This document shows, piece after piece, positions 62,954-63,745 of a stretch of DNA of 64,000 nucleotides. Location: the NCBI RefSeq assembly GCF_053078305.1, contig NZ_CP166879.1; one strand, written 5' to 3'. The notes under the pieces are model-generated. The model saw only the letters and a list, made by a program, of their open reading frames with translations. It had not been told where the DNA came from and did no database searches. Position numbers and translations under genes: made by a program. Each line of letters opens with the position of its first letter. Positions within the stretch are counted from its first letter, which is position 1.

Positions 62954-63745
62954 TTAACGAATTGAATATCCACCATCAATGACTAATAGTTGTCCATTGA
63001 CATAATCTGAAGCGGCACTGGCGAGGAACACCATTGCGCCCATAAGATCCTGTGCCCTTCCCCAGCGTTGAGCCGGTATACGCCCTTTTATTAACTCTTT
63101 TATTTTAGGGTTATTATAAATAATAGCGGTCATTTCACTCACATAATATCCTGGGGCGATACCATTAATCTGAATATTATATTCCGCAAAATCATCGGCA
63201 TACGCTTTGGTCAGCCCCGCTAAAGCATGTTTAGTCGCCGCATACCCTGGCGACCAACGTCCCCCATGAAATGACAATACGGAACACATATTAATAACTT
63301 TCCCTTTTCTTTGCGGGACAAATATATTCAATGCGGCCTGGCTCATATCGAATGCAGCATTCAGGTTGAGATTAATCATCGGATCCCAGTCGTTTCGATT
63401 GAAATCGATAGGACGATTAATGTTACACACGCCCGCGTTATTGACCAGAATATCTAACTGACCGAAACGCTCCAGACACCTATTAATAATGGTGCATGCT
63501 GCATCAGGTTTTGTTATGTCTATTGTCATAAACTCAACTTCAACGCCTTCATGAGTTAAATGCTTTAAATATTTATTATCAGGCTCTTTGATGTCTACCA
63601 ACAACAGATTAGCTCCTGCTTTGGCCAGAGCAGAGCATAAGCCTCTCCCCAGTTCACCCGCGGCCCCAGTTACGATGGCCACCTTGTTATGTAAAGAAAA
63701 AAAATCCAATGAAAAATCTTCAATAGAAAAGCTCATATCACACAT
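62954..63745 (-). CDS. Short-chain dehydrogenase/reductase (KduD/gluconate-5-dehydrogenase-like)
   Basis: Rossmann motif VTGAAGELGRG, NNAG, catalytic YAATKHA. True start probably a few codons inside the track ORF. Confidence 0.75.
   Translation of the reverse strand: MCDMSFSIEDFSLDFFSLHNKVAIVTGAAGELGRGLCSALAKAGANLLLVDIKEPDNKYLKHLTHEGVEVEFMTIDITKPDAACTIINRCLERFGQLDILVNNAGVCNINRPIDFNRNDWDPMINLNLNAAFDMSQAALNIFVPQRKGKVINMCSVLSFHGGRWSPGYAATKHALAGLTKAYADDFAEYNIQINGIAPGYYVSEMTAIIYNNPKIKELIKGRIPAQRWGRAQDLMGAMVFLASAASDYVNGQLLVIDGGYSIR

Follow-up and report, generated by a model that had tools for sequence, protein, structure and literature searches.

Close to the end of the window (the whole 64,000-nucleotide stretch of DNA that was analysed), an uninterrupted ORF of 263 codons runs along the minus strand (62954..63745 in the ORF listing of the window), and it raises the question of which enzyme it encodes and to which genetic unit it belongs. 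The earlier note described it as a KduD-like SDR oxidoreductase lying convergent to a fimbrial operon and followed by AT-rich sequence up to the window end, considered that it might belong to a sugar-acid catabolic unit continuing past position 64000, and left a link to the island unclear. The SDR family is borne out by full-length Pfam matches to adh_short_C2 (6e-52) and adh_short (7e-50), which score 169.7 and 177 bits (adh_short and adh_short_C2, respectively) against gathering cutoffs of 26.6 and 27. Moreover, the gene is already known: O157:H7 genomes have carried it as an annotated "putative oxidoreductase" from the first ones onwards, and it is named Z1533 ("putative oxidoreductase") in EDL933 (PMC3681748) and ECs_1275 ("oxidoreductase"), adjoining grvA (ECs_1274), in Sakai. 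A literature search for Z1533/ECs1275 returned nothing relevant beyond a phosphotyrosine proteome (PMC3681748). The gene and the features around it are located as follows.

62954..63736, minus strand: SDR oxidoreductase CDS z1533/ECs_1275, 260 aa, with the stop codon TAA at 62954-62956
63737..63745, minus strand: extra in-frame codons ATG TGT GAT of the longest ORF, probably untranslated
63748..63753, minus strand: Shine-Dalgarno AAGGAG, from the alignment of E. coli, Pseudocitrobacter and Serratia
63754..64000, no strand: AT-rich 5' region of the SDR gene (GC 23-28%), the first part of a 687-bp intergenic region
62873..62924, no strand: stem-loop, probable terminator, from folding of the 145-bp convergent gap
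56184..62808, plus strand: chaperone-usher fimbrial operon (hyp207, pilin, chaperone, usher, 444-aa fimbrial protein, chaperone), from ORFs and RefSeq annotation mapped from L001
34464..54793, minus strand: 17-gene co-directional array at the other end of the island, from annotation, collinear with a Serratia locus

Island membership and transcription unit

O-island 47 (OI-47) spans 31.7 kb from z1528 to z1556 and includes grvA as z1531 (PMC8565820). In TB06051, O157 and Sakai, z1533 is found between dgcT (ycdT) and ycdU/serX, and K-12 carries at the same site dgcT, IS3D, ymdE (a pseudogene), ycdU and serX, with no z1533. Among 5,426 complete E. coli genomes, 401 (O157:H7 included) contain a match to the 1.3 kb around z1533, with 90-99.6% identity. 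In this set, grvAB is present in 410 genomes, the SDR gene in 401 and the array gene KS852 in 382, and 379 genomes have 80% or more of a 25-kb island stretch. Gene order and co-occurrence across E. coli genomes thus settle the link that had been left open: z1533 is a true member of OI-47 and, within E. coli, has been inherited as one block with the rest of the island. About 20 E. coli genomes retain only the right-hand part of the island, with the SDR gene intact in the absence of the 17-gene array; in one of them, RM9872-C1, the usher gene is truncated by IS3, and the SDR gene, grvAB and the EAL gene are intact. A protein scan of genome contigs returned a 99%-identical copy on a 2.5-kb gut-MAG contig together with a 37%-identical SDR (L011), and a metagenome scan with a clade-specific degenerate DNA pattern returned five contigs, all of E. 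coli and all with the same arrangement.

Extension of the analysis beyond position 64000 leads to the virulence regulator genes grvA-grvB and not to the sugar-acid catabolic unit that had been suggested. Past the window end, three annotated complete genomes (TB06051, O157 PV15-279 and Sakai) all agree on the order of a 687-bp intergenic region, grvA, grvB (FidL-like), vmpA (EAL), core dgcT and pgaABCD. None of kduI, kdgK, kdgA, an isomerase, an aldolase, a transporter or a sugar kinase was found past the window in these three genomes. The grvA gene encodes a member of the ToxR family that regulates LEE and acid resistance (PMC8565820, PMC10877973), and vmpA is an EAL-domain gene (PMC4076661). 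The grvA-grvB pair is located on the strand opposite to z1533 and divergent from it, with the start of grvA about 425 bp past the window end, so that the SDR gene and the divergent grvA have the 687-bp region in common. The full region corresponds to positions 16038-16724 of L001 (window coordinate = L001 + 47699), and its GC layout consists of two 23-28% blocks flanking one 45% block. The sequence up to the window end (63746-64000, 255 bases) is indeed AT-rich, with 26.7% GC, compared with 41.9% in the z1533 gene and 48.5% in the window overall, and it is the proximal part of the regulatory region common to z1533 and grvAB. A consensus scan of this region returned no sigma-70-like site on the minus strand and, therefore, the SDR promoter is predicted rather than located. 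Rfam gave only chance-level matches in the gene, the convergent gap and the intergenic region, and between genera the intergenic sequence could not be aligned.

On its other side, z1533 is convergent to the fimbrial operon, as had been described, since the plus-strand fimbrial chaperone gene ends at 62808 and a 145-bp gap separates it from the SDR gene. This gap folds into a stem-loop with an MFE of -34.5 kcal/mol on the plus strand and -48.8 kcal/mol on the minus strand (z of about -3.3 on both strands, with 0 of 200 shuffles as stable on either of them). The stem is formed by GGA(A)GTGGAGA...TCTCCACTCC and is followed by ATTTTCC on the plus strand only, which places the U-tract on the fimbrial strand only; a simple terminator scan did not list the stem-loop at 62873..62924. 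The SDR gene does not belong to the fimbrial operon, as it is located on the opposite strand, in convergent orientation and beyond a stable hairpin, and in Serratia it is present without any fimbrial operon. Moreover, nucleotide homology between genera reaches no farther than 25 nt before the SDR CDS and 3 nt after it. Because its upstream neighbour is divergent, a convergent hairpin lies downstream and homology ends at the edges of the CDS, z1533 has the appearance of a monocistronic single-gene unit. Its transcription would start at its own promoter, in the AT-rich region common to the divergent grvAB operon, and would end at the hairpin in the convergent gap.

The encoded protein and its family

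The longest ORF and the annotated CDS differ by three codons at the 5' end. In TB06051, O157 and Sakai, the RefSeq CDS has the same 260-aa form with its start at the second ATG (63736), which is kept in all orthologs and from whose Met the homologs align, and the first ATG (63745) is absent from the Pseudocitrobacter and Serratia orthologs in the alignment. The AAGGAG sequence, which is the sole upstream element conserved among E. coli, Pseudocitrobacter and Serratia (coding sequence apart), leaves a spacing of 2 nt to the first ATG and of 11 nt to the second. Thus, the second ATG and not the first is the probable translation start, and the first three codons are probably untranslated, because a spacer of merely 2 nt separates the RBS from the first ATG and this ATG is unconserved.

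All seven genes compared, namely three from E. coli, one from Pseudocitrobacter, one from Serratia and two from intermediate clades (62-66% identity), are intact at exactly 260 codons. Between genera, dN is about 0.11 and dS is saturated, and within E. coli dN/dS ranges from 0.12 to 0.28, values that rest on few substitutions. A Z1533 peptide carrying pTyr-201 was detected in the phosphotyrosine proteome of EHEC (PMC3681748). The EDL933 numbering of this site (pTyr Y201) matches the 263-aa form, in which residue 201 is a Tyr, the second one of PGYY. Intact ORFs of 260 codons, a low dN with saturated dS and the peptide detected in EHEC establish that z1533 encodes an expressed protein under purifying selection.

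The description of this protein as KduD-like holds as a similarity statement, because the best NCBIfam model is that of KduD (PRK06935), and the closest solved structure by sequence is also a KduD, that of Pectobacterium (4z9y, 200 bits). As an assignment it fails, since all KduD cutoffs of NCBIfam are missed (NF005390, 294.5 < 369; TIGR01832, 250 < 338.85; NF006528, 231 < 430) and z1533 is 55.0% identical to K-12 YgcW vs 42.9% to K-12 KduD, with 40.7% to 4z9y and 26% to the FabG-like protein of the island. With the FabG model, z1533 scores 194 bits against a cutoff of 298. A KduD equivalog would have KduD as its closest paralog together with kduI or pectin/hexuronate neighbours, and z1533 departs from this pattern; a genuine kduI-kduD pair sits elsewhere on the K-12 chromosome. 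Homology searches therefore upheld the SDR family and identified YgcW, rather than KduD, as the closer relative.

The relatives recovered in the database search comprise a clade at 80-83% identity, two clades at 62-66% and a broad family at 52-59%, the latter with proteins of 258-262 aa that score 318-354 bits and are also below the KduD cutoffs. The neighbourhood conserved around members of this broad family in Serratia, Izhakiella and Bacillus corresponds to the carbohydrate-type ygc locus of K-12 (ygcNOP / ygcQRSUW / yqcE-ygcE), whose SDR is YgcW. In an NJ tree with KduD as the outgroup, the YgcW orthologs are tightly grouped, and z1533 forms with the two 62-66% clades (P0006 and P0007) a longer sister branch. 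YgcW orthologs fall inside this tight clade with 75-87% identity to K-12 YgcW, and z1533, at 55%, falls outside it. Moreover, since the island copy is found in a genome of Serratia cf. fonticola and S. fonticola also has an ortholog of YgcW (P0021), z1533 and YgcW are paralogs. In E. coli, ygcW is near-core (5,076 of 5,426 genomes) and z1533 is accessory (401 genomes). The searchable literature on YgcW yielded nothing functional. Judged from sequence, z1533 is a divergent, orphaned paralog of YgcW and not a KduD ortholog.

The catalytic tetrad of N124, S152, Y165 and K169 (YxxxK) is invariant in 17 sequences, and the NNAG motif at 98-102 is invariant as well. The glycine motif of the z1533 clade reads TGAAGELG (TGxxGxxG), with the second Gly changed to Glu, and departs from the classical SDR cofactor motif TGxxxGxG, whereas YgcW has TGGNSGLG. 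The TGxxGxxG spacing is typical of extended SDRs. Among the 116 of the top 120 homologs in which this motif could be scored, the Gly-to-Glu variant is found only in six clusters of the z1533 clade; in the 62-66% clades the motif contains GG and is compatible with either spacing, and the other 108 scored homologs are classical. The Glu in place of the second glycine might impair or alter dinucleotide binding. Asp48, which ends strand beta-2 (LLLVD), is conserved in the z1533 clade and sets this clade apart from YgcW, and an Asp at the end of beta-2 predicts NAD(H) in classical SDRs. The substrate lid of SDRs is the segment after PGYY, and in z1533 it is rewritten as VSEMTAIIYNNPKIKELIKGR vs ATDITxxTRxNPETNQRVLDH in YgcW, while GGRWSPGY stands where YgcW has GGQWSPAY.

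The AF2 model of the protein (pLDDT 71, pTM 0.77) contains seven beta strands in beta-alpha-beta order, although pLDDT falls below 50 in the active-site loops at residues 103-112, 153-164 and 198-203. In Foldseek, the best match of this model is 4z9y, with a TM of about 0.8, followed by structures of FabG, gluconate 5-dehydrogenase and DhuD. The top matches are all classical SDRs with a TM of 0.7-0.8, and the protein has a single-domain Rossmann fold of about 250 residues.

The lipid array and competing explanations

At the other end of the island, genes 1-9 of the co-directional two-partner-secretion (TPS)/lipid-synthesis array encode TpsA, ShlB, acpS, FabG-like, FabZ-like, ACP, GcvT-like, KS852 and KS407, and genes 10-17 encode hyp, ABC, hyp, FtsX, LolA-like, hyp462, a malonyltransferase and YcdU. 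This lipid cluster may resemble the streptococcal cyl operon; with one cluster protein compared, CylG (9cly) gave about 170 bits and was tied with generic FabG/glucose-ribitol dehydrogenases. The FabG-like protein of the island passes the NCBIfam FabG subfamily cutoff (227 > 222). A role of z1533 as chain-elongation ketoreductase in the lipid cluster was considered and rejected, because the cluster has its own FabG-type gene.

The explanation that we favour, and regard as fairly probable, is that z1533 is a solitary, monocistronic cargo gene of OI-47 that encodes a functional classical-SDR homolog, a paralog of YgcW. On the basis of general knowledge of the SDR family, such an enzyme would transfer a hydride between NAD(H) and a secondary alcohol or ketone, with Tyr165 as the catalytic acid/base and Lys169 lowering the pKa of Tyr165, while Ser152 would polarise the substrate oxygen and Asn124 would hold the proton relay. 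A preference for NAD(H) over NADP(H) is predicted from the conserved Asp48. Divergence from YgcW involved the loss of the whole neighbourhood (MFS, FGGY kinase, FAD oxidase/ETF and GlpP-like antiterminator), the rebuilding of the substrate lid and a shift of the glycine motif from TGxxxGxG to TGxxGxxG. Because of the lost neighbourhood, the rebuilt lid and the changed glycine motif, our best guess is a stand-alone dehydrogenase that would act on a small hydroxy or keto (sugar-acid-like) compound differing from the YgcW substrate. The stand-alone reading is weakened by the situation in Serratia, where the SDR gene closes a co-directional array of 18 genes.

The same Serratia locus is the starting point of a different explanation, namely that the SDR is a tailoring enzyme of the TPS/lipid array that would carry out an oxidation or reduction at a hydroxyl or keto group of the array product or of a precursor. 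In Pseudocitrobacter (SDR 82% identity), the order of TPS, fimbriae, SDR and grvAB is the same as in E. coli, whereas in Serratia cf. fonticola (SDR about 80-81%) the SDR gene follows the YcdU-like gene that ends the array after 131 nt, on the same strand, and precedes core genes, in a locus with neither fimbriae nor grvAB. The pair of array and SDR is thus kept in three genera in two different arrangements. Moreover, the array proteins of Serratia and E. coli are collinear and 63-89% identical, and the SDR, at 81%, shows a similar divergence. The gene maps also suggest a circular order YcdU..SDR..TpsA common to both arrangements, a pattern that would be compatible with a single ancestral element linearised at different points. 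Nevertheless, a tailoring role is unlikely, as the array already contains the FabG-type ketoreductase described above, a weak terminator-like hairpin lies between ycdU and the SDR gene in Serratia, and the SDR gene is intact without the array in the roughly 20 E. coli genomes that retain only part of the island. The array marker hyp462, with 86 clusters at 90% identity, is found in at least 10 genera, whereas the SDR clade at 80% identity or more is found in only three. Distant arrays on plasmids of Enterobacter bugandensis and Rahnella sikkimica end at YcdU and have no SDR, and no gene of the z1533/YgcW family was found on these array replicons at E <= 1e-60. In addition, the members of the 62-66% clades are solitary genes, one of which (P0007, 62% identical to z1533) converges on tpiA. 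Given the FabG of the array itself, the wider spread of hyp462, the distant arrays devoid of an SDR and the solitary 62-66% clades, the SDR appears to be a late add-on to one island sub-lineage and not a core component.

Regulation by the divergent neighbour provides another alternative, in which z1533 would be a local target of GrvA and would perform an enzymatic step in the adherence and acid-resistance programme that GrvA controls. The SDR gene and grvAB have one intergenic region in E. coli and Pseudocitrobacter, whose SDR proteins are 82% identical, and co-occur in E. coli at similar frequencies (401 and 410 genomes); in addition, MarT, the Salmonella homolog of GrvA, activates its neighbour misL according to a review (listed among the references of PMC10877973). 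However, the intergenic sequence cannot be aligned between genera and Serratia has the SDR gene without grvAB, and we consider this explanation quite improbable. Even less credit is given to a functionless passenger, that is, a decaying ygcW duplicate, which the lost ancestral operon context, the atypical composition (41.9% GC) and the non-canonical glycine motif could suggest; against it, all seven lineages keep 260 intact codons, dS is saturated at a dN of about 0.11, none of the catalytic residues varies and the protein was detected in EHEC (PMC3681748). A KduD-type 2-keto-3-deoxygluconate dehydrogenase in a sugar-acid unit continuing past 64000, which was the proposal of the earlier note, is hardly credible. 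It draws on KduD being both the best NCBIfam match and the best solved structure, and on the RWG motif and the C-terminal Arg that both proteins have, but past the window there are grvA-grvB, vmpA and dgcT and no catabolic genes, every KduD cutoff is missed, YgcW is closer than KduD, and K-12 has its genuine kduI-kduD elsewhere.

A more far-reaching version of the YgcW ancestry can also be envisaged, although we hold it to be rather doubtful. The z1533 clade would then be a neofunctionalised duplicate of YgcW that was captured by the TPS/lipid island and acts on the island lipid product or on a host or gut metabolite under GrvA control. If this were true, the switch of the glycine motif via GG intermediates would be a rare documented case of cofactor-loop remodelling inside a classical SDR scaffold. 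The main gain of the analysis is a set of corrections: z1533 is not KduD and does not lie at the border of a sugar-acid pathway, YgcW is its nearest relative, and it is seen as a single-gene add-on of OI-47 that shares a regulatory region with the virulence regulator genes grvAB. By itself, z1533 matters little, and nothing mechanistically surprising was found. Its substrate, if found, could help to identify the substrate of the highly conserved ygc locus or the product of the island lipid cluster.

Comparison with known systems

The closest paralog of z1533 is YgcW (K-12 b2774, "putative deoxygluconate dehydrogenase", uncharacterised), with 55% identity and a similar length. Both proteins contain the N-terminal FSLDFFSL, the catalytic tetrad, WDPM, H170, RWG and the C-terminal DGGY..R. 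The YgcW orthologs examined, which range from Bacillus to E. coli, are 75-87% identical to K-12 YgcW. Their genes are accompanied in K-12, Serratia, Izhakiella and Bacillus by a GlpP-like antiterminator, one or more MFS transporters, an FGGY kinase and an FAD oxidase. ETF genes are also found beside YgcW in K-12, Serratia and Bacillus but are absent in Izhakiella, and one Salmonella copy of YgcW (78.5%) has a different neighbourhood. In contrast, these neighbours are absent within 15 kb of the z1533-clade SDR in E. coli, Pseudocitrobacter and Serratia.

KduD (2-dehydro-3-deoxy-D-gluconate 5-dehydrogenase; E. coli b2842, Pectobacterium 4z9y/4za2) is the best match among curated HMMs and structures, and it has in common with z1533 the classical SDR fold, the same catalytic residues, the RWG motif and the C-terminal Arg. 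However, the two proteins are only 41-43% identical and differ in the glycine motif and the lid, and z1533 lacks a kduI neighbour. Finally, the FabG-type 3-oxoacyl-ACP reductases, including the FabG-like protein of the island (48114-48875), belong to the same superfamily and have the same fold as z1533, and both island SDRs, z1533 and the FabG-like protein, carry TGxxG[DE]xG.

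The K-12 site and the distribution of the array

Window 34464-54793, minus strand: 17 co-directional genes of the island, TpsA through YcdU
Window 34464-35749: malonyltransferase/ycdU end of this array, with its K-12 counterpart at 9545-10830 of locus L021

The last 303 nt of the island malonyltransferase gene are 99% identical to the K-12 pseudogene ymdE, ycdU of K-12 corresponds to the final gene of the 17-gene array, and the insertion sequence IS3D adjoins both ymdE and ycdU in that strain. What looks like an "empty site" in K-12 is therefore the stump of an IS-associated deletion, and the ycdU found there is a leftover of the island, not a core gene in its own right. 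Outside E. coli, the array is kept as a block in Serratia, Pseudocitrobacter, and plasmids of Enterobacter bugandensis and Rahnella sikkimica, and its marker protein hyp462, which is devoid of any Pfam domain, is found in at least 10 genera.

Disrupted and probably mislabelled copies in E. coli

E. coli RM9872-C1, L022 7748-10855: IS3-family insertion in the island
Gut-metagenome E. coli contig, L027 7187-7735: partial grvA

In RM9872-C1, the fimbrial usher gene is cut short by an IS3-family transposase, which also stands in place of the entire left part of the island, beside urease genes; the SDR gene z1533, the virulence regulator genes grvAB, and the EAL gene are intact, and dgcT is absent. 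The grvA of the metagenomic contig gave one contiguous match covering only residues 1-183, and this regulator gene may be disrupted in the corresponding strain. The sole match to the island labelled as a plasmid in E. coli is NZ_CP124742.1 (hits H63 and H68), a 212 kb EDL933 record typed as non-mobilizable, which is probably a chromosomal fragment submitted as a plasmid. Several E. coli "plasmids" of 4.8-4.9 Mb in PLSDB are likewise chromosomes.

The intergenic region between the SDR gene and grvA

L001 16300-16560, about 300-560 bp past the window end: block of 45% GC

This block, flanked on both sides by blocks of 23-28% GC, had no match in an Rfam search. It contains a 70-codon ORF with a GTG start on the grvA strand, unannotated in RefSeq and possibly the old z1532 call.

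Related dehydrogenases and known systems

K-12, L028 4658-15375: ygc locus (ygcNOP, ygcQRSUW, yqcE, and ygcE), with further loci at L012, L007, and L014
Window 48114-48875, minus strand: FabG-like ketoreductase of the island

The ygc locus of K-12 is found again in Serratia and Bacillus, as well as in Izhakiella in a version without ETF genes, and the YgcW proteins of these four share 75-87% identity across phyla. The locus is an unusually conserved catabolic module, which appears to be uncharacterised.

The streptococcal cyl operon may resemble the 17-gene array in gene content; in the single test made, on one protein only, CylG and generic FabG were tied. The island ketoreductase carries the glycine motif TGASGDIG and z1533 carries TGAAGELG, so that both share the pattern TGxxG[acidic]xG despite only 26% identity between the proteins, a likeness of motifs that could be either coincidence or a common cofactor-loop solution.
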